Sequence record: PZ583741.1
Source of the DNA: a phage
DNA: 64,000 nucleotides
Strand: one strand, 5' to 3'
Of this stretch, positions 32-62,662 are shown one piece after another (within the stretch, counting starts at the first letter, position 1; each line of letters starts with the position of its first letter). A model generated the notes under the pieces. The model ran no database searches. It was given only the letters and a program-made list of their open reading frames with translations, and was not told the DNA's origin. Both the position numbers and the translations under genes were made by a program.

Positions 32-541
32 TCAGAACGGAATGTCGTCGTCGAAGTCAATCGGCGGCTCATTGCCTCCTTGTGGGCTTTGTTGTTTTTG
101 TGGCTGTTGTTGTTGCGGATTTGTCCCCCATCCACCTTGAGGTTGCTGTCCTGATTGCTGGCGTGGTTGTTGCTGATCAGAATCATCACGTCTACCACCA
201 AGCATCTGCATAACACCACCCATCTGCGGAATGACAATCTCAGTGGTGTATTTTTCAACGCCGCTCTGGTCTGTCCATTTGCGAGTGAGTAATTTACCTT
301 CCACGTACACCTGAGAGCCTTTCCGCAGGTATTCACCAGCAACTTCTGCCAGCTTCCCGAAGATAACCACGCGATGCCATTCAGTTTGCTCTTTCTTTTC
401 ACCTGTGGCCTTGTCATTCCACTGTTCTGATGTTGCAACGGAAAGATTGGCAATTGCAGAACCTGATGCTGAATATCTAATTTCCGGGTCATTACCAACT
501 CGACCAAGGATTATGCACTTATTAATACCAATCGAAGACAT
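32..541 (-). CDS. ssb: single-stranded DNA-binding protein (OB-fold, acidic C-terminal tip DDDIPF)
   Basis: 169 aa; N-terminus [19 protein letters not shown] resembles bacterial SSB; Q/G-rich linker; C-terminal DFDDDIPF. Confidence 0.85.
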
Positions 542-1059
542 TACTTGAATCTCCCGTTTTTATCTCTTAATCTGCCATTATGATTCTCTGTGGCGTGTAA
601 TGATGCGTGCTCTGACTTCGTCATAAGCATTAGGTTACTTGGATGGTTGTTTGTTTTATCATGGTCTATATGATGAACGCATTCATTGTGAAACAACCTC
701 CTCCCAATAATGCCTTCCATAACTACAACATGCTCTCCTCTTCCTTTGTTTTCACCCATAGTTATCTCGACATAACCGTTCGGTTTTACAGAGCGCCCCT
801 TGCCAACTCCTTTCTTTGATTTTGATATATTTTGCTTCCATTCTTCAGTAAACTCTCGTTTTTTACCCCTAAGTCCTGAGCCAAGCCTTCCCTCTGCGGC
901 AGCAATTCTTATTGCATCCCCTCTGCTTCTCAATATTCCGGCTTTCTTAAATCTAAACCTCAATGTTGACATGGCTATTCCTGTTTCATTGGAGATTTGA
1001 GGGATGCTCATGCCAGACAAATACATATCAAACTCATTCATATGCACCTCCTTGTGCAA
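541..1059 (-). CDS. HNH endonuclease with N-terminal HTH-like region
   Basis: 172 aa; [15 protein letters not shown]...HASLH matches an HNH motif. Confidence 0.65.
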
Positions 1060-25879: not shown

Positions 25880-26965
25880 ATGTCTAAAGCCCGCTATGAC
25901 AGTGTAAAGTTTAAAGCAACAATCGACGAGAATGGATTCTTAGTTGACACTCCGGTAGTCGCTCGTCTCGGCGTGCAAGTCTACTACATGGAAGATGGTC
26001 GAACGGTTCGAGAGTTTCGCCCGGCAGAGGAGGTTTTCAATGATGAATCTCTGGCAAGCTACCAGGGTAAGCCAATGACTCTTGATCATGTTTTCGTTAA
26101 CTCAGAGAACGCTAAAGAGGTAGTAGTCGGCTCAGTTGCTGGAAAGGCAGAGCCATTAGGCAGCTCCGTGGTTGCTCCAATTGTTATTTACGATAATGCC
26201 GCCATTCAGGAAGCTATGTCAGGTAACGCAAAGGAGTTATCCGTTGGATACTCATCAGTCATTGATTACACCCCAGGTTGGGGTGACCCTGTTACTGGTG
26301 AGTACTTCCTTAAGTCTGAAAGTGAGCTATTCGACGTACCAGAAGGATGGCAGGAGTTCGACGCAATTCAGCGTGACATTAAAGTGAACCATCTCGCAAT
26401 GGTATATCGCGGTCGCGCAGGTATTGCCAAATTGAATATGGACGGTGAGCAGGAAAACCCGTATACTACTGACGTTGATATCAATAAAGAGGATAAACAG
26501 GAAATGATTAAGATTAAACTAGACGGCGCGCAGGAATTCGAAGTCGCCCCAGAAATCGCTTCTCACATCGAAGCGCTGAACGCAAAGGCTGACACTGCAA
26601 TCGCAGAGCGCGACTCGCTGAAAGCTAAGGTAGATGCAATTCCAGCTGAAATCGAGAAAGCAGTAGCTAAAGCTAAAGCTGATGCCGATGCCCTAGCCGC
26701 TCTGGTTGCTGTTGCTGCTGAAGCTGGTGTTAAGGCTGACGGCCTGGATGCTAAAGGCATTAAAGTTGCTTACGTTAAAGAAGTCTCCAGTCTTGATGTT
26801 TCCGAGAAGTCTGACGCTTACATCGACGCAGCGTTCGACATTGCCAAAGAATCTGATAAAATGGCTGAAGTACGTAAAGCGACTACCGCTTCCGACAAAT
26901 CTGACAGCGCCGAAGAGCCTAAGAAATTAGACCCGCGTGCTCGTTTAGCTAAAATTAAGAAATAA
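25880..26965 (+). CDS. putative head scaffolding / maturation protein
   Basis: 362 aa; Ala/Lys-rich coiled-coil C-terminal half; position between portal and capsid. Confidence 0.4.
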   Translation: MSKARYDSVKFKATIDENGFLVDTPVVARLGVQVYYMEDGRTVREFRPAEEVFNDESLASYQGKPMTLDHVFVNSENAKEVVVGSVAGKAEPLGSSVVAPIVIYDNAAIQEAMSGNAKELSVGYSSVIDYTPGWGDPVTGEYFLKSESELFDVPEGWQEFDAIQRDIKVNHLAMVYRGRAGIAKLNMDGEQENPYTTDVDINKEDKQEMIKIKLDGAQEFEVAPEIASHIEALNAKADTAIAERDSLKAKVDAIPAEIEKAVAKAKADADALAALVAVAAEAGVKADGLDAKGIKVAYVKEVSSLDVSEKSDAYIDAAFDIAKESDKMAEVRKATTASDKSDSAEEPKKLDPRARLAKIKK

Positions 26966-43449: not shown

Positions 43450-43938
43450 TATCGCAAATTTACCCATAAATCATGGTTACGCGTAACCGATGTAACTCGA
43501 TGTATACCATAGCCACCCGCGAGAAATGATATACGCACTGTTACGCCAATTTACGCAATGGTTACATTAAAATATCTATATATATCAACCTTTTACTCTT
43601 ATTATTATTATTATATATATTACCGTGTATATCATGTAACTACTGTTCTGGAGTGTTCCGGTTATAATTTTTATATTATGTGGATTTATACAGTATTGCG
43701 CGGCACCTATACATATGCACCATCCGTTAAAATAGGTATACACGATATACGCACCATTTACATTGAGCTATAGCTGGGCTTAAGTGGTGAAAAACGTAAC
43801 AAATGGCGATGTCTACACGTAGTTACAAAATTATACGCGTAAACTTGAATCAACGATTGGCAAAACCAATTGGACTACGCGTCGTGCGTAAGGCATCATT
43901 AACTCATCGAAAGCAAACAACAATAGAGAGATAAAGAA
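43440..43938. promoter_or_regulatory. AT-rich divergent control region (copy 1) with (TA)n, (ATT)n and 20-bp element cattgagctatagctgggct
   Basis: About 500 bp without ORFs; element at 43761..43780 contains perfect palindrome agctatagct; paralogous to 61940..62662. Confidence 0.5.
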
Positions 43939-44136: not shown

Positions 44137-45108
44137 ATGACATTTACCGTATACACAAATGATGAGCTAACCAATGAAGCCTATCACGAAGAGCAAGACC
44201 ATATCTCTGGCTCTTCACTTGCTGAGATTCTTGCCACCTCTCCAGCTAAATGGAAGTTTAAGCAGCGCAATAACTCTAGCGCAGCACTTAAGTTTGGCAC
44301 ACTCAGTCACTGCATGATGCTCGAGCGTGAAGTGTTCGATTCAACCTACATGCGAGCAACTGACTTTGACGAAGTGGAAGGATTGATTACAAGCCAAACA
44401 GCCTTATCAGCAGCGCTTAAGAAAGTTGGAGTTTCTGGCACGTCAGGAAAGGGCTATAGCGAGCTCTTAGAGATGATGTACAAGTCTGGTGAGGATTGGC
44501 CTGTTAAATGGTTAATTGATCAGCAGGAGAGCGCTGAGGCGTTAATTAGTGGCAAGGAGCTAGTTACTGCTAAAGATTACGATAAGGTAATCTCAATGCG
44601 TGAGGTTCTGACTAATGTACCGGCATATGATGCGGTGATTAATTCACCTACAGCGCAGAAAGAGCTATCAATCTTTGGTGATATTCTTGGGTGTGGTGTT
44701 AAGGTTCGGCTTGATCACGTGGATGTTGTTGATGGCGTTGTCTATATCCATGACTATAAGACGACCGCAGACGCAAGCCCTCGAGGATTTGGTAAGTCGG
44801 CTTATGACCATGGTTACCTGTGCAAGATGAGCCTTCAGCGTGATTTGTTTGTGAAGGCATTTAGCGAGAAGCGCAAGGTTGTGGTTCGACTCCTGGCGCA
44901 GGAGAAAACTGAACCATACTTACCTATGTGCTACACGCTTACAGATGAGCAACTTCGCATTGGGCGCATTCAGTATCTTGAAGCACTGGCTACATACAAA
45001 CAGTGCAAGGAACTTGATGTGTGGCCTGGTTACAGTAATGGGATTACAGAGCAAGAACTGATGATCCCTGAGTGGGTAAGTAAGCAGTATCAGGAGCTGC
45101 TAAAATAG
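44137..45108 (+). CDS. PD-(D/E)XK family exonuclease
   Basis: 323 aa; N-terminal block matches A ORF 1799..2749; IHDYKT motif. Confidence 0.55.
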   Translation: MTFTVYTNDELTNEAYHEEQDHISGSSLAEILATSPAKWKFKQRNNSSAALKFGTLSHCMMLEREVFDSTYMRATDFDEVEGLITSQTALSAALKKVGVSGTSGKGYSELLEMMYKSGEDWPVKWLIDQQESAEALISGKELVTAKDYDKVISMREVLTNVPAYDAVINSPTAQKELSIFGDILGCGVKVRLDHVDVVDGVVYIHDYKTTADASPRGFGKSAYDHGYLCKMSLQRDLFVKAFSEKRKVVVRLLAQEKTEPYLPMCYTLTDEQLRIGRIQYLEALATYKQCKELDVWPGYSNGITEQELMIPEWVSKQYQELLK

Positions 45109-45185: not shown

Positions 45186-45335
45186 ATGAAAGTATACATC
45201 GTAACCAGTCAAGAAATGTATGATTATGATACGAATGTTGAAGCCGTGTTTTTTGATGAAGAGCTTGCTAATGGATTTGTTTATAAATCAGAACTTGAAG
45301 GATTGCAGATTTTAGAGATGGAGGTAACCGAGTAA
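45186..45335 (+). CDS. hypothetical small protein (49 aa)
   Basis: After cassette; TAATG overlap with next gene. Confidence 0.3.
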   Translation: MKVYIVTSQEMYDYDTNVEAVFFDEELANGFVYKSELEGLQILEMEVTE

Positions 45336-45985
45336 TGAAAACTTCAGAACAAAACAAGCAAGTATTGAAGTCGTTATTTGAAGCTAAATCAAAGTTTGCA
45401 AAGGCTGAAAAGTCAAAGCAGAACTCACACCTGAAGAACAAATACGCAACTCTGGAAGACGTACTAGCGGCTGTAGAACCCGGCCTTGCAGATAGTGGTC
45501 TGGTTTTATTCCAGGGAATGCTTGATGATGAAGCCACGACTCGGATTAAAGTTGAGACAACTATCTATCATGCAGAGTCTGGAGAGTGGGTTAGCTTCCT
45601 GACAATCGTCCCAATCAGCAAGCAAGATGCCCAAGGTTATGGTTCTTCTCTGACTTATGCTCGACGTTACGCAATTACAGCAGCATTGGGGCTGAGCCAG
45701 ACGGATGATGATGGTCAGCTGGCAGTTAAAGGAATTAACTCATTTAAGAAGGACTTGGCTAAGTGCAATACCCTTGATGACCTGCGTGATGTTTACAAGG
45801 AAGCAAAACAGTCTCTTGACTCTGCTGGGTGGTTAGTGCTTGAGCCTCATATCATTGAGCGAAAAGCTGAGATTCAGGCTAATGCAACTAACGGATTCAA
45901 TCCAGCAAAACCTAAGCAGGTTGCACAAAAAACTGTTCAAGAAGAAAGAATTGAAGTACAATCTCAAGAAATCGATACGTTCTAA
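45335..45985 (+). CDS. putative single-strand annealing protein (Erf-like, family uncertain)
   Basis: 216 aa; DAQGYGSSLTYARRYAITAALGLSQTDDDGQ shared with A paralog. Confidence 0.5.
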   Translation: MKTSEQNKQVLKSLFEAKSKFAKAEKSKQNSHLKNKYATLEDVLAAVEPGLADSGLVLFQGMLDDEATTRIKVETTIYHAESGEWVSFLTIVPISKQDAQGYGSSLTYARRYAITAALGLSQTDDDGQLAVKGINSFKKDLAKCNTLDDLRDVYKEAKQSLDSAGWLVLEPHIIERKAEIQANATNGFNPAKPKQVAQKTVQEERIEVQSQEIDTF

Positions 45986-46025
45986 TTTAACGGGGCTTCG
46001 GCCCCAACATTAAGAGAGAAATGAA

Positions 46026-46454
46026 ATGAGTCATGTAATCACTGGTGTTATCCGTCGCGCTCCGTTTACCAAAGAAGGTCAGAATGCCAATGGCACCTGG
46101 AAGATGTACGCAGTTGATTTGAGTGAGCGATATAAGGATAAAGATGGTCAGGCACATTATTCGAATTACCGCGCAGTCTTCTTCGCGAAGGAGTCAATGC
46201 TAGATTGGTACAACGAGGCATTTCAAGAGGGTAAAGTTGTTAGCGTTAGCGCTGAAAGTTTATCTGTAGATGTTCGTGACAAAGATGGTAAAACATACGT
46301 AACCATTAACATGAATAACCCTCGACTAGAGTTTAGTCAGCGTGGCGATGCAGTTAGCAATCCACAACAACATCAACATCAGCCAAAACAGCAGCAGCAG
46401 CAGCAACGACAACCGCAGCAGCAACAGAACCTCGAGGACGACATTCCATTCTGA
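46026..46454 (+). CDS. ssb: single-stranded DNA-binding protein with Q-rich linker
   Basis: 142 aa; C-terminal LEDDIPF; (CAG/CAA)n tract 46370..46430. Confidence 0.7.
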   Translation: MSHVITGVIRRAPFTKEGQNANGTWKMYAVDLSERYKDKDGQAHYSNYRAVFFAKESMLDWYNEAFQEGKVVSVSAESLSVDVRDKDGKTYVTINMNNPRLEFSQRGDAVSNPQQHQHQPKQQQQQQRQPQQQQNLEDDIPF

Positions 46455-46463
46455 TAAAAGAAA

Positions 46464-46486
46464 AGGCCCCTTTCGGGGCCTTTTTT
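46464..46486. terminator. bidirectional terminator (A-run, aggcccc-tttc-ggggcct, T-run)
   Basis: Read directly; between convergent ssb and tailspike. Confidence 0.8.
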
Positions 46487-49034
46487 ACGAAGCTGTATTT
46501 ACCTGAAGATATGCACCATTAGTGGCACCAAACCATGCGTAAGCAGATCCGTAAGTTGTTGGGTTATCATTTAAGATGAAGTCACCCGCTCTAATTACAC
46601 ACTTTGCTCCATATCTATCAGTTGGCCTTGCACTAAAACCATAATCAACATATCTAAAACCAACCTTCGTTACGTTATCGTTAAGAGGAAAAATATCCGA
46701 GAAGCTAGAAGACCTAAAGTCATTGTTCCTGAAAACGCCTCCAGTAAAGTTATCCATGTCAAACATAGTGTTCAAGCTAGCTCCAACAGTATTCCTGAAC
46801 TTGTTACCTTCGTATGTTGGAGAGATTACTTCATAGCCAACCCTCAACTGAATAAATCCTCCATCAAGAATATTGTCCTTAATTGTTGGGTACTGACCGC
46901 CGATTGATAATGCCCCGAAGCCAGGTGTAAATTTGCAACTATTATTACTAAATATAGCACCAATCCATGACTGATTAGTAAGGTATGGTGCTTTCGTGTC
47001 GGTCATCGTGTTTCCGGTGATAATTAATCCATTCTTAATCTGTGTGCCCTCCTGGTAGCCCTGAATCGCCACGCCACCACCAATCATAATGTTGTTGGAT
47101 ATAATAATGTTGCTCAACCCCTCATTAACACCCCAATCACTTTCTGCATCATTTGTTATCAGTAAGTAGTGAGAAGAAGCCCTACCAGTAGCGTCCGTAG
47201 TTATAATGCTTGTATTGCCTTTGCATATAACATTGTTTGCCGCAAAAACCTCAACAAATATACCAGCACCTTCGTAGTAGTTATCCGTAACCGTTACGTT
47301 ATTGCCAGCCGGGGTTATCCTTGACTGGATAGATATTGGATAATAGAACTTGTTGGCGTGAGCATAAGACCTTTTGCTTTTTTCGGATATTGCATAATCC
47401 TCCGCGAAAGTGTGCCATGCCCTTCCTGACTGTTTTGTTGTGTTTCCGATAAACTCTGAGTAGTCACAGTTTCTTGTGAGTAAGCAGTAGTTAGTGTTGT
47501 ATCTGAAGTTTGAATCTCTAAGAGATACTAATGCATTAGATAAACCATTAAGAGCATCGGCATTAACAAAGGCCCTCGAGGCATTAACCTCCATACGCTC
47601 AATCAAAACTGATGCGCACCCTTCAACCATAAAGCCAAACCAGTCTTCTCTTGGTTTATGCGTTGTATCTAATGGTTGGATTGAGTAATCTGAAAAGTCA
47701 CTATTCCAGTTGAGGCCGCTAGCTTTAAGTGTGCAATTCTTTGCGCCGAAAACAACCCTCTCAGGTGATGAACTTCCAGATATATCGATCTCAACATCAT
47801 TATTGGCAAAAATATCAACATTAAGGCCATTAAGGAAGAATGCCGTCTTCCTTAATACGTTGTACTTATCATTGTACTGAATATCAGTGGAGAATGAGAC
47901 CTTCAGTCTTCCTGCGCTAATCCTTACCTTTCTGTTTGTGTTGTGACCAAGATTTATACACGCCATCACTGATGCGTTTGATTCATTAACTCCAGAAACA
48001 TCATGACCAGCCCATTCAGTATGGATATCATCGATCCCTCCTGTAAACCTAACCCAGCAACCATTCCCCCCTGGTGATGGCTCACCAACTCCTCCAAGGA
48101 AGTCTGAAAGCGTGGAATAAGTACCATCAAATGGAACCGTTGGGCTAAAAACAGTAATCCCGTTATGTTCGCCCTTACTTACTGATGGACTCCAGTAGAA
48201 CAGACCGCCACCAGAGTTTGATCCAGAAATGTAAGACCTTACATTTGCTAAAGTTTTATTCTCAGTTGGTTGTTGGATTAACTCGTAAATAGAATCAAAA
48301 CCAGCATCACCACTGGAAGCCAAAGGAATCCAACCTTGAGGGCCGATGCCACCAGTGTCTTCCGGGGTAGAGCCAGCTGGAACAACTTTAGGAAGTTCAC
48401 CGCCCCACAGGTAGGATGATGCGTAACCATTTGATATATTTATTACCTGCTGGCTTTTTGATTCTACTGTTACTCCATCCTGAAATGTGCCAATTAGAGC
48501 CCCAGAAACAGAAGCGGCACTTGCTGCAGCATGTTGTGCAGATACAGAAGCTGATGATGCGCTCAATTCTGATGATTGCTTGTCCTGGGACACCTGAGCG
48601 GCATCACTAGAAACTTGAGCGCCAATAGAAACAACCTCACCATGCTGTGTGTTTACCTGGGTTACCTTTGATTCAAAATCCGCAAAGTCAAAGTTGTTAA
48701 AAGCATCGACTGCATCGGCGACTTCTGTTTCTCGCGACTGATAGTATCGAAGAGTCTCGGCAACATCCTGAGCTAAACCCTGAACACTAATACCATCATG
48801 TGCAAGGATTGCATAACCAGTGCCATCGGGAACGGTTTCACCATTAGGGTTGTATACAGCCATTGATGTGTCGCTGGTGATTTCAGAGATAGTGTAAATC
48901 TGTACTGGCTCCGTTTTAAACACTAAAGTAGCACCAACGCGAATAAGTGTTAGTGGCATGGTCCATTGAGTGCCAACTCCAGTAACCTGACCGTTCGCTG
49001 CTAAACTGGCAGTGCCAGTATCATAAATTGCCAT
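46485..49034 (-). CDS. tailspike / receptor-binding protein with beta-helix-like repeats
   Basis: 849 aa from ATG (track start 49064 is a GTG); repetitive N/G/T-rich C-terminal region. Confidence 0.6.
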   Translation of the reverse strand: MAIYDTGTASLAANGQVTGVGTQWTMPLTLIRVGATLVFKTEPVQIYTISEITSDTSMAVYNPNGETVPDGTGYAILAHDGISVQGLAQDVAETLRYYQSRETEVADAVDAFNNFDFADFESKVTQVNTQHGEVVSIGAQVSSDAAQVSQDKQSSELSASSASVSAQHAAASAASVSGALIGTFQDGVTVESKSQQVINISNGYASSYLWGGELPKVVPAGSTPEDTGGIGPQGWIPLASSGDAGFDSIYELIQQPTENKTLANVRSYISGSNSGGGLFYWSPSVSKGEHNGITVFSPTVPFDGTYSTLSDFLGGVGEPSPGGNGCWVRFTGGIDDIHTEWAGHDVSGVNESNASVMACINLGHNTNRKVRISAGRLKVSFSTDIQYNDKYNVLRKTAFFLNGLNVDIFANNDVEIDISGSSSPERVVFGAKNCTLKASGLNWNSDFSDYSIQPLDTTHKPREDWFGFMVEGCASVLIERMEVNASRAFVNADALNGLSNALVSLRDSNFRYNTNYCLLTRNCDYSEFIGNTTKQSGRAWHTFAEDYAISEKSKRSYAHANKFYYPISIQSRITPAGNNVTVTDNYYEGAGIFVEVFAANNVICKGNTSIITTDATGRASSHYLLITNDAESDWGVNEGLSNIIISNNIMIGGGVAIQGYQEGTQIKNGLIITGNTMTDTKAPYLTNQSWIGAIFSNNSCKFTPGFGALSIGGQYPTIKDNILDGGFIQLRVGYEVISPTYEGNKFRNTVGASLNTMFDMDNFTGGVFRNNDFRSSSFSDIFPLNDNVTKVGFRYVDYGFSARPTDRYGAKCVIRAGDFILNDNPTTYGSAYAWFGATNGAYLQVNTAS

Positions 49035-49057
49035 TGTGTAAAGTCTCCATTTGTAAA

Positions 49058-49075
49058 GTAGCACTAATTGCTAAG
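49058..49075. promoter_or_regulatory. cassette-like palindrome gtagcactaattgctaag upstream of tailspike
   Basis: Matches consensus on the plus strand but lies 5' of a minus-strand gene; orientation ambiguous. Confidence 0.35.
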
Positions 49076-50679: not shown

Positions 50680-52674
50680 ATGTTGCCTATCGAAAAGCTG
50701 GTTGCAAACTTCGATAAAGAAAGAATCAAGCAGATTCAGAAAGACTATCAGTTTGGTGAGATAACCCCTTACGAGTTTCAGTGCGTGACATTTGATGCAA
50801 TCGGAAAGGCTATTGGGAAGTACGAAGCACCATTTATCGCAGACCTTTCCGTATCGGCTGGTAAGACAATCATCCTGGCTATGATTGGAAAGCGTATGGA
50901 TCAGCTTGGTCTTCCTTATATGGTTCTATCTCGACAGTCAGAGATAATCAGCCAGAACTCAGAAGAGCTTCGTAATTTCGGCATCCGTAACAGCGTCTAT
51001 TGCGCTGGCCTTAACGTTAAATCGGTTTACTATCCAACCATAGTTGCCAGCGAGGGTACGGCTGCTAACGGATTGTTTAAGGGGCTTGGTGACTATGTTC
51101 CGGCAGTTATCGCTATCGATGAATGCCACATGCTTGATGCTATGGATATCGTTGAAGCCGAGGAGAACGAGGAAACTTTTGAGCAAATGAGCACAAAGAA
51201 GGGCGAGATGGTTCTCAAGGATGGCGTTAACACTGGATTAATTGGTACAGGTCGCGCGCAGTACACGCTAATCATCACTGAGATGAAGCGTCGTTGTCGC
51301 GAAAAGTATGGGCGGGAGCTTCGTATATTCGGTCTTACTGGCAGCCCATATCGCAACAACGACCACATAGTCGTTAGTAATCCTAATATCCGTGGTTTCT
51401 GGCGCAAAACAGTTATTCAGGTACCGACCAATTACCTGGTTGATTTGGGGTTCGTTGTACCAACAGTTTACGGTGAAGTTGGTGATTTGGGCTATGACCT
51501 TGCTGAGTTTACGCCAGATGGCTCTGACGGGATTAAAGACTTCACGAAGAAAGACTTAAACGCAATGGAGGAGAAGATTCACCAAAACCAATCTATGACA
51601 CAAAAGATTATGCAATTTGCAGCCAAGTTCATGGAGACAAGGAACGCGGCACTTGTTACCTGTTCTGGTAAGCGTCATTGCGAGGAAGCAGCAGCAGCGC
51701 TTCCTGAGGGTGTGACCTGGGCTATAGTAACTGACTCTACTGGTGAGAAAAAGCGTCGTGAGATTCTTTCTGACGCAGCTGAAGGTAAGTATAAATTCAT
51801 CTTTCAGATTGGTTGCCTCACAACCGGCGTGAACGTCCCGCCATGGGACACGTCAATAATTCTTCGCAAGGTTGGTAGCATCACGTTATTGATTCAGCTT
51901 TTGGGTCGAGGCATGCGAATTCTTAAGAAGAAGCATAAGGAAATGGGAATGGTTAAGGATGATCACGTGGTGCTGGACTTCGCTGGTACTCTTGATGACA
52001 TGGCAGAATTGTACTTTGACCCAATCATAGAGGAAGTGCAGGACCAGAAATTTAAGTCTTCACGCAAAGGCGGCGATGAGCCAAGAGTGTGCCCCGCATG
52101 CTCTTATGAGAATTCTCCTTTTGCCCGTCGTTGCAATAACGTAATTGATGGAAAGCGTTGTGAGCATTTTTTTACATTTCGCTTGTGTGAAGATATAGAG
52201 GACCCGCAGACAAAATCTATTATTAAGAAAGGTTGTGGTGAGAAGAATGATATTGCCGCTAAAAACTGTAGGTGCTGTGGCGAGATGCTAATAGACCCGA
52301 ACGCAAAGTTATCTGGGAAAATGTATCGTAAAGGCGACTGGTTGAGAGTCTACGACTTTAAGATTGGATTAACAAAGAATCAATCAGGGATTGTTGCCTC
52401 ATACGAGGTCATGGCTCATAGTGGGGATAGGTTCCGGGCCTATGAGACGTTTTTTCCAGAGTCAGACCATCGCGTTTGCTCTGTAAAATGGAAAGCATTT
52501 TGCTCGAGTCACATAGAGAACAGGACTGAGGCTTTTAGAATTGGCAGATTGCGTAATGCTAAGATGATTATGACTAATGCTCACCTTTTCCGTGCGCCAT
52601 TAAGGATTACACACCGTAAGAACCAGAAGTCTCAAGATATTATCGCAAACAAATCATTTACTATGGAAGACTGA
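50680..52674 (+). CDS. SF2 DNA helicase with C-terminal zinc ribbons
   Basis: 664 aa; Walker A SAGKT, DExH-like IDECH, LLGRGMR, CPACS/CRCCG; homolog of A 3190..5124. Confidence 0.8.
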   Translation: MLPIEKLVANFDKERIKQIQKDYQFGEITPYEFQCVTFDAIGKAIGKYEAPFIADLSVSAGKTIILAMIGKRMDQLGLPYMVLSRQSEIISQNSEELRNFGIRNSVYCAGLNVKSVYYPTIVASEGTAANGLFKGLGDYVPAVIAIDECHMLDAMDIVEAEENEETFEQMSTKKGEMVLKDGVNTGLIGTGRAQYTLIITEMKRRCREKYGRELRIFGLTGSPYRNNDHIVVSNPNIRGFWRKTVIQVPTNYLVDLGFVVPTVYGEVGDLGYDLAEFTPDGSDGIKDFTKKDLNAMEEKIHQNQSMTQKIMQFAAKFMETRNAALVTCSGKRHCEEAAAALPEGVTWAIVTDSTGEKKRREILSDAAEGKYKFIFQIGCLTTGVNVPPWDTSIILRKVGSITLLIQLLGRGMRILKKKHKEMGMVKDDHVVLDFAGTLDDMAELYFDPIIEEVQDQKFKSSRKGGDEPRVCPACSYENSPFARRCNNVIDGKRCEHFFTFRLCEDIEDPQTKSIIKKGCGEKNDIAAKNCRCCGEMLIDPNAKLSGKMYRKGDWLRVYDFKIGLTKNQSGIVASYEVMAHSGDRFRAYETFFPESDHRVCSVKWKAFCSSHIENRTEAFRIGRLRNAKMIMTNAHLFRAPLRITHRKNQKSQDIIANKSFTMED

Positions 52675-61939: not shown

Positions 61940-62662
61940 ATTGCGCGGTAGTATTTACCCTTTTTAGTCTCTTTCGAGAGTGACTCAGAGTCTGCTACCG
62001 TGTCGATGAGATTAAGTATACGCATAGTTAGCCACACTGTCTTTAGCAAAAAGTGCTATTCGTTAGATTTATGGATTGTTGCAGATATTGCAATGATTCA
62101 CATGACTATTGCACATACAGCAATATTGCTTCAGATGCAATGATGTTTTTGATTGTTGCGAAAATTGAAATGAAGTGGAGATTGAGTGAATGAAAGATGG
62201 ATGGACTACCATACAAGTTGATTTTGATCTTGACTGAGCCATTTTCACGCTTACACGTAACCGCTGTAGCGCGATGTAAGCCAACGCCTATCGTTACGCG
62301 AGTTACGCGAAGCTACGCCATGACTTACACTATAAGTGCTTAATATATATATATATCTTCTTTCTATTATTATTATTATTATTAATATTATTGTATGTAA
62401 GTCATGTAACCGGGTGTTCGGCGGTATCTATATGTTTTTTCCTATCAGAATACATTATTTCCATTTTATGCGAGATTTAGCCATTATGGGGCCACCTAGC
62501 TAATTTACCTCGTTACACGCACGACACGAAACTACATTGAGCTATAGCTGGGCTGGTGTGCCATTTCGCGTAACGACCCCCAAAAGTTACCAAAAATTAC
62601 ACTTGACTACATGTGTAAGTCGGGATATGATGGATTCAACTTAAACGAGAGGAGTAATAGAA
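61940..62662. promoter_or_regulatory. AT-rich divergent control region (copy 2) with (TA)n, (ATT)n and 20-bp element cattgagctatagctgggct
   Basis: Element at 62535..62554; (tatt)/(att) run 62361..62390; paralogous to 43440..43938. Confidence 0.5.
62043..62060 (-). promoter_or_regulatory. B cassette motif on minus strand, variant (aatagcactttttgctaa)
   Basis: Reverse complement read directly. Confidence 0.45.

Follow-up and report, generated by a model that had tools for sequence, protein, structure and literature searches.

A CAG/CAA codon tract in a T1-like phage SSB gene encodes a glutamine-rich linker of predicted disorder

The CAG/CAA tract near the 3' end of the gene for an SSB, a protein that binds single-stranded DNA, in a 64,000-nucleotide stretch of phage DNA (record PZ583741.1; the whole stretch is called the window here) is very probably the coding DNA of a disordered, Gln-rich SSB linker, in which selection would act on the tether, the repeat would be a by-product and occasional slippage would be tolerated. 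The length of this linker varies among related phages, and the variation is a slow drift of tolerated linker length.

The SSB gene and its genomic setting

The window joins two unrelated phage genomes, A and B, with the junction lying within 17.7-21 kb. The first ~17.7 kb have their matches in Salmonella and Escherichia siphoviruses of the Segz_1/BS5 type, and from ~21 kb onward the DNA is that of an Rtp-like phage (Drexlerviridae, Braunvirinae), with SU57, CEB_EC3a and ACG-M12 at 86-90% identity. The features of the two genomes that concern us here are:

32-541, minus strand: canonical SSB gene of genome A, 169 aa, ending in DFDDDIPF
44137-45108, plus strand: PD-(D/E)XK exonuclease gene (DUF3799; Pfam PF12684, E 2.8e-21)
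45335-45985, plus strand: gene of an ERF-family single-strand annealing protein (Pfam PF04404 ERF, E 3.2e-28), immediately upstream of the SSB gene
46026-46454, plus strand: SSB gene of genome B, 142 aa and a TGA stop, assigned by PHROG 44 and by annotated relatives
46026-46346, plus strand: OB-fold ssDNA-binding domain, residues 1-107, ending NPRLEFSQRG, assigned by AlphaFold2, Foldseek and hhalign
46461-46484, no strand assigned: hairpin terminator shared by the SSB and tail-spike genes (perfect 10 bp stem, G+C-rich, A/T runs on both sides; found by terminator scan)
46485-49064, minus strand: tail-spike gene, convergent to the SSB gene

The original prediction had called the gene of genome B an SSB, and this identification stands, despite the divergence of the protein. 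A Pfam scan of the open reading frame (ORF) left the SSB model PF00436 unmatched at E <= 0.1, with noise only, and neither phmmer nor a profile hmmsearch against the PDB sequences found an SSB, again with noise only; since these searches were negative, the case for an SSB is built on PHROG, on profile-profile comparison and on the fold. The whole protein is covered by PHROG 44 (E 3.2e-27), whose name is “single strand DNA binding protein,” and genome A's canonical SSB is a hit to this PHROG too. The BLASTP alignment of the B SSB with the A SSB was limited to the C-terminal QQ...DDIPF, so that profile and fold methods were needed to compare the remainder: hhalign, run with a profile of 87 homologues against the genome A SSB, returned a probability of 94.9% over the OB-fold core. 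The alignment-based AlphaFold2 model is an OB beta-barrel with one helix (residues 56-68), its block-mean pLDDT being 72-92 for residues 1-100 and 74 for residues 101-110, and the top 50 Foldseek matches in the PDB include nothing but SSBs, 49 of them from bacteria and one an organellar SSB of Plasmodium; their probability is 1.00 in all cases but one (0.99), and their TM is 0.25-0.50. Relatives of the protein are, moreover, widely annotated as SSBs. By profile comparison and predicted fold, what the ORF encodes is a genuine SSB, and the phage is an Rtp-like one (Drexlerviridae, Braunvirinae), with ssDNA binding and an oligomeric state presumed to go with that identity.

For annotation, the useful point is that this is a true SSB family that Pfam misses; Pfam-based pipelines have an annotation gap for the OB domain (46026-46346) of the T1-like SSBs. 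The labels in the databases are also uneven: some GenBank records mislabel the gene, that of phage ES having “terminase small subunit” and many others “hypothetical protein,” and near-identical coliphage SSBs or genomes stand under the names Streptomyces lividans, Aeromonas veronii, Nitratidesulfovibrio liaohensis and “Pseudomonas phage PsgS01F” (the last of these and Escherichia phage UALMA_PCEc3 are both 44,679 bp). These odd host labels are probably due to contamination or host mislabeling. The exact B SSB protein was absent from a collection of 15 billion sequences.

The order exonuclease-ERF-SSB-terminator-tail spike is conserved in every relative compared, and annotations of the exonuclease gene in relatives read exodeoxyribonuclease VIII or exonuclease; a small DUF7336 ORF between the exonuclease and ERF genes is also a member of this module. 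Stimulation of the neighboring annealase by the SSB of phage HK620 depends on the SSB tip (PMC5928155), and by analogy the ERF protein is a likely functional partner of the SSB. The hairpin at 46461-46484 is a probable bidirectional terminator; SU57 and CEB_EC3a carry an annotated Rho-independent terminator at the matching position.

Three smaller features of the two SSB neighborhoods may be recorded here. The C-terminus of the ERF protein (45962-45985), ...SQEIDTF, is acidic with a terminal Phe and loosely recalls the SSB tip. A second G+C-rich hairpin, GGGGC-TTCG-GCCCC (45993-46006), lies downstream of the ERF stop and upstream of the ribosome-binding site of the SSB gene; it has no T run and may act in the stability or processing of the mRNA. 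In genome A, an HNH endonuclease gene (541-1059, minus strand; several HNH PHROGs, best E 8e-18) abuts the SSB start codon immediately upstream, which is another case of endonuclease-SSB adjacency beside the one described below.

The codon tract, the linker and the tip

The 3' part of the B SSB gene consists of the following features, all on the plus strand:

46347-46427, plus strand: Gln-rich linker of predicted disorder, residues 108-134, DAVSNPQQHQHQPKQQQQQQRQPQQQQ, 56% Gln
46389-46427, plus strand: CAG/CAA tract, codons 122-134, QQQQQQRQPQQQQ, assigned from the sequence, Tandem Repeats Finder and the (CAR)6 pattern
46389-46403, plus strand: (CAG)5, the sole pure repeat of the tract, 15-17 nt
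46428-46451, plus strand: acidic C-terminal tip NLEDDIPF, an SSB-Ct-like partner-docking motif by sequence, followed by TGA

A CAG/CAA tract encoding a linker ahead of the DDIPF tip had been predicted at 46370-46430, and on both counts the prediction was right. The quoted string sits within that range at 46389-46427, where the DNA, cagcagcagcagcagcaacgacaaccgcagcagcaacag, reads (CAG)5 CAA CGA CAA CCG CAG CAG CAA CAG, that is, 13 in-frame codons. The His/Gln/Pro-rich stretch PQQHQHQPK (46362-46388) precedes it, the codons for NLEDDIPF and the stop lie directly 3' of those for QQQQQQRQPQQQQ, and all are in the frame of ORF 46026-46454. The pLDDT of the AlphaFold2 model is <50 for residues 109-142 and only 34-39, without secondary structure, for residues 111-142; residues 109-142 are predicted to be disordered.

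Tandem Repeats Finder reports the tract with a period of 3, 13 copies and 77% matches, along with a second, looser call with a 21-nt period (46362-46423, score 68). The pattern (CAR)6, with up to one mismatch allowed, matches seven times in the whole window against an expectation of 0.00 from 100 dinucleotide-preserving shuffles; five of these matches overlap in the tract, the sixth (98-115, minus strand) is in the linker of the genome A SSB and the seventh (26703-26720) is in an Ala/Val-rich stretch of another gene. Outside (CAG)5, the tract is broken up by CAA, CGA and CCG. Besides (CAG)5, the window has three pure trinucleotide runs that reach 4 units or more: (TAT)6, which lies inside a 9-copy TAT array (62365-62392) longer than the CAG run of the tract, (TTA)5 at 43599-43614 and (AGC)4 at 51687-51698. 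Given these three runs, (CAG)5 itself is not exceptional; what is exceptional is the 13-codon CAR-rich tract. The tract is thus non-random as a run of Gln codons and unremarkable as a pure microsatellite.

For the tail, defined as all residues C-terminal to the conserved SQRG motif, we compared the query with 120 homologues at 77-95% identity. The 121 tails comprise 107 distinct sequences, 29-40 aa in length with a median of 35, which is also the length of the window's own tail. The linker of this family is 63.5% Gln and 8.2% Pro, with little Arg, Lys, Ser or His, and it has neither Gly-rich segments nor aromatic residues in any of the 121 tails; the longest run of Gln is 4-11 residues across the family and 6 in the window's SSB. 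In the tip, I140, P141 and F142 do not vary across 87 homologues, and the variants among the 121 tails include FNDDIPF, FEDDIPF and FDDSIPF; the Leu that the window's protein has seven residues from its C-terminal end occurs in 2 of the 121.

Insertions and deletions are confined to the linker. All internal gap columns of the alignment of 87 sequences fall at linker positions 114-130 of the query, and across the 120 close homologues indels were never seen in the OB domain or the IPF tip. Likewise, in clusters at 90% identity the OB domain always has 102 or 103 residues and the total length is 128-145 aa, the Gln tract holding all the difference.

In the more distant representatives (27-52% identity), the tails are again of low complexity, with much Gln, Pro, Gly, Ala and Asn, and differ in length, and most of those that are full-length end in an acidic ...IPF; this similarity of the tails makes the SSB design family-wide. 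The near-pure poly-Gln linker, as judged from the tails compared, is a trait of the Rtp-like clade. Genome A, whose SSB had been said to have a comparable Q-rich linker, does have one, in a tail of 55 aa with 29% Gln; its Gln codons (12 CAA and 4 CAG) are mixed with Gly and Pro, so that it is less purely poly-Gln than the linker of B. We found nothing specific in the literature on phage SSBs with a DDIPF tip or a glutamine-rich linker.

The persistence of this composition while the exact sequence changes, together with the absence of Gly and aromatic segments from a linker so rich in Gln, could be taken to mean that poly-Gln has a specific role, either in self-association or condensate formation by SSB-ssDNA complexes or in contact with a Gln-recognizing partner, having replaced a Gly-rich linker in Braunvirinae. 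The linker of E. coli SSB differs in just this respect, with 17 G and 11 Q (PMC12143593), and amide-rich SSB linkers have been implicated in cooperativity and phase separation, with amide-amide interactions proposed as the driver (bioRxiv 10.1101/2022.01.17.476650). The same study, however, gives Gly more weight than Gln, its backbone amides mattering more than Gln/Asn side chains, and reports that the N/Q-rich tail of a Plasmodium SSB does not phase-separate (bioRxiv 10.1101/2022.01.17.476650). The phage linker is, moreover, short (~27 aa), and the mixed Q/P/G/A/N linkers of the distant members indicate that poly-Gln is not required for the function of the family. We consider a specific role for poly-Gln unlikely. 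A bolder version, which strikes us as rather a long shot, is that the Braunvirinae evolved a near-pure poly-Gln tether, its length re-tuned by slippage, that drives self-association of SSB-ssDNA into replication or recombination condensates inside the infected cell, as a Gln-based alternative to the Gly linkers of cellular SSBs. A Gln-only linker, if it did form condensates, would offer a compact natural setting in which to learn how the composition of an SSB linker tunes function.

Some SSB homologues (L038 and the proteins P0087, P0222, P0125, P0170 and P0209) carry ~15 residues beyond the usual terminal ...DIPF, e.g., ASLGLQYGKHRIYAL. In L038 (2921-3395 of a Logan SRR10769897 contig), the extra residues belong to the 5' end of a 148-aa endonuclease gene (phrog_2340, E 1e-39, with an HNH-like motif) that has been inserted directly on the SSB stop codon. 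The insert is a homing-endonuclease cassette that seems to be aimed at the conserved DDIPF-coding site, and it would mask the free C-terminal Phe of the SSB.

Length variation among relatives and stability of the tract

The original prediction held that the tract is prone to slipped-strand length variation and proposed a comparison of linker lengths as the check. Such a comparison does reveal polymorphism among related phages, in the form of linker-only indels and of CAG codons gained or lost; the variation seen is between related phages and not among the near-clonal records compared. Six pairs of tails are identical save for one block of 1-4 codons (Q, H, K or QQQQ) in a homopolymeric run. 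Rtp, with the longest pure run in the family (6 units), reads CAA CAA (CAG)6 CAA CAA AGA where IME253 reads CAA CAA (CAG)4 CAA CAA AGA. The only relative with the same (CAG)5 tract as the window, L009/L010, carries it unchanged. Two other lineages (L011-L016) keep the length of the window's tract with a CAG to CAA interruption; L017/L018, at ~94% DNA identity, have one codon more, and in all of L011-L018 the pure run reads CAG CAG CAA CAG CAG. L019-L022 have one CAG fewer than the window. Changes of +/-1-2 codons thus occur at ~90-95% identity. Single codons are not the only unit of change: in the vB_EcoS-12210I group (L001, 544-594), the 18 nt CCT CAG CGG CAA CAG CAA stand twice in tandem, encoding PQRQQQPQRQQQ, which indicates that duplication of larger units shapes these linkers in addition to single-codon slippage. 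From these alignments, length change of the slippage type does occur over evolutionary time, slippage being the presumed mutational mechanism. A metagenome scan gave 9 loci only.

A near-clonal sister phage, the vB_EcoS-... series on E. coli DSM 12242, is represented by 43 database records, and these do not differ at all (100% identity) across 499 nt that include the SSB gene; the sister-phage tract has no pure run of more than 2 units, so that this is a partial test and no direct measure of the stability of (CAG)5. The four records of Veterinaerplatzvirus T145P1 also show no length difference in the SSB span. Nor do the codons themselves carry the signature of recent slippage, an excess of identical adjacent Gln codons: in 24 distinct tail DNAs, with 225 CAG and 198 CAA, 49.1% of adjacent pairs are identical as compared with 50.2% expected (0.491 vs 0.502). 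CAA is in fact commoner in the tails (47%) than in the long ORFs of genome B (31%), with CAG at 53% vs 69% (Fisher p 7e-6, indicative only, as the tail sequences are phylogenetically related). A (CAG)5 within six consecutive Gln codons has P ~0.2 from the codon usage of the genome alone. By these measures, the tract is not a hypervariable locus.

These observations bear on whether the repeat could be a selected “tuning knob,” in which CAG units are frequently gained and lost within populations, the length of the tether varies and the phage adapts quickly to hosts or partners. Linker lengths do differ even among proteins that are at least 90% identical, single-unit differences are present in pure runs, and exposure of the E. 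coli SSB tip does change with linker length (PMC12143593), all of which would be expected of such a device. Against it, CAG and CAA are mixed at random and CAA is commoner than in the genome at large, the reverse of the pattern that recurrent slippage would leave behind. The pure run stops at 5 units, most relatives have it interrupted, the one relative that shares it has it unchanged, the 43 sister-phage and four T145P1 records do not differ in length, and the tails keep to a narrow band of 29-40 aa. With a 3-nt in-frame unit and interruptions, moreover, length change cannot switch the gene on or off. We find a selected tuning knob very unlikely. On the 5-unit run, the random CAG/CAA mix, the in-frame unit and the identity of the clonal records compared, we also rejected the reading of the tract as a contingency locus.

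Finally, the ORF list does show a Ser/Asn-rich ORF of 54 aa in the +1 frame (46342-46506) spanning the tract, but the notion that the repeat belongs to this overlapping ORF or to an antisense product has next to no chance of being right and was rejected as an artefact of repeat composition, because a CAG/CAA repeat is stop-free in any frame and keeps the +1 ORF open by default, that ORF passes through the terminator hairpin, its ends are unconserved in 27 relatives (many stop just after the SSB stop), and the antisense frames mostly contain stops, with no minus-strand ORF of 40 aa or more here.

Proposed explanation and comparison with known systems

We propose that the B SSB is built of three parts: an N-terminal OB fold that would bind ssDNA, a tether of ~27 residues rich in Gln with a few Pro, His, Lys and Arg, and the ...EDDIPF tip. 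The last residues of E. coli SSB recruit many partner proteins (PMC10164576, PMC7913777), and the roles of the tip have been described in phages as well as in E. coli (PMC5928155, PMC10164576, PMC7913777). By analogy with the E. coli and HK620 SSBs, the tip in the B SSB would dock onto partners, whether host replication and repair proteins, the phage ERF protein, or both. The likely role of the SSB is in the neighboring ERF/exonuclease recombination module and in phage replication, and through its tip, almost identical to that of the host, it could plug into host proteins.

The linker of E. coli SSB governs, by its length and composition, both the exposure of the tip and condensation (PMC12143593). 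In the phage protein, selection would keep a polar, uncharged and disordered tether of ~25-30 residues at a roughly constant length, and the DNA repeat would not itself be selected. Gln has two codons only, and a Gln-rich linker is therefore necessarily written as CAG/CAA repeats. Such low-complexity DNA would occasionally slip or be duplicated, adding or removing 1-4 codons in frame and sometimes units of 18-21 nt; purifying selection would then confine the tail to ~29-40 residues, and synonymous changes between CAG and CAA would scramble the codons and keep the pure runs short. The CAG/CAA codon tract is what one would expect to see in the DNA where an SSB linker is disordered, and specialists will find nothing unexpected in it. 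The comparison does document linker length as the sole indel-tolerant part of this phage SSB family, and it carries a caution, namely that CAG/CAA tracts in phage genomes need not mark hypervariable loci.

Simple-sequence-repeat contingency loci of bacteria and phages resemble this gene in having a short tandem repeat within a gene whose length changes by slippage. They differ from it in that the tract here is in frame, interrupted and limited to 5 pure units, without variation among the clonal records compared and without on/off switching.

The HK620 SSB/Sak4 pair (PMC5928155) is another parallel, since in both phages the SSB gene adjoins that of an annealing protein and the SSB has a host-like acidic tip. 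The annealase here, a putative partner of the SSB, is of the ERF family rather than Sak4; in addition, the tip of the HK620 SSB is NDYPPF, whereas the one described here is nearly identical to that of the host.

E. coli SSB has the same overall plan, with an OB fold, a disordered low-complexity linker containing many Gln and an acidic tip (MDFDDDIPF) whose last five residues, DDIPF, are identical to those of the phage protein. The phage OB fold is recognizably homologous to that of E. coli by profile and by structure, although too divergent for Pfam PF00436. The phage linker is about half as long (~27 aa vs ~56), is ~56-63% Gln and lacks the Gly-rich repeats, aromatics and PxxP motifs of its E. 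coli counterpart, and at the seventh residue from its end the phage protein carries Leu, the E. coli residue there being Phe.

The SSBs of T1-like phages such as Rtp, SU57, CEB_EC3a and phiA2-1 (PHROG 44) are orthologues at 77-95% identity and share the gene order, the Q-rich linker and the IPF tip; the differences are of detail only, in the exact sequence and length of the linker (tails of 29-40 aa) and in the tip variant. The SSB of genome B is thus a protein of bacterial-type architecture and an orthologue of already annotated T1-like phage SSBs, and as such belongs to an ordinary, already known kind.
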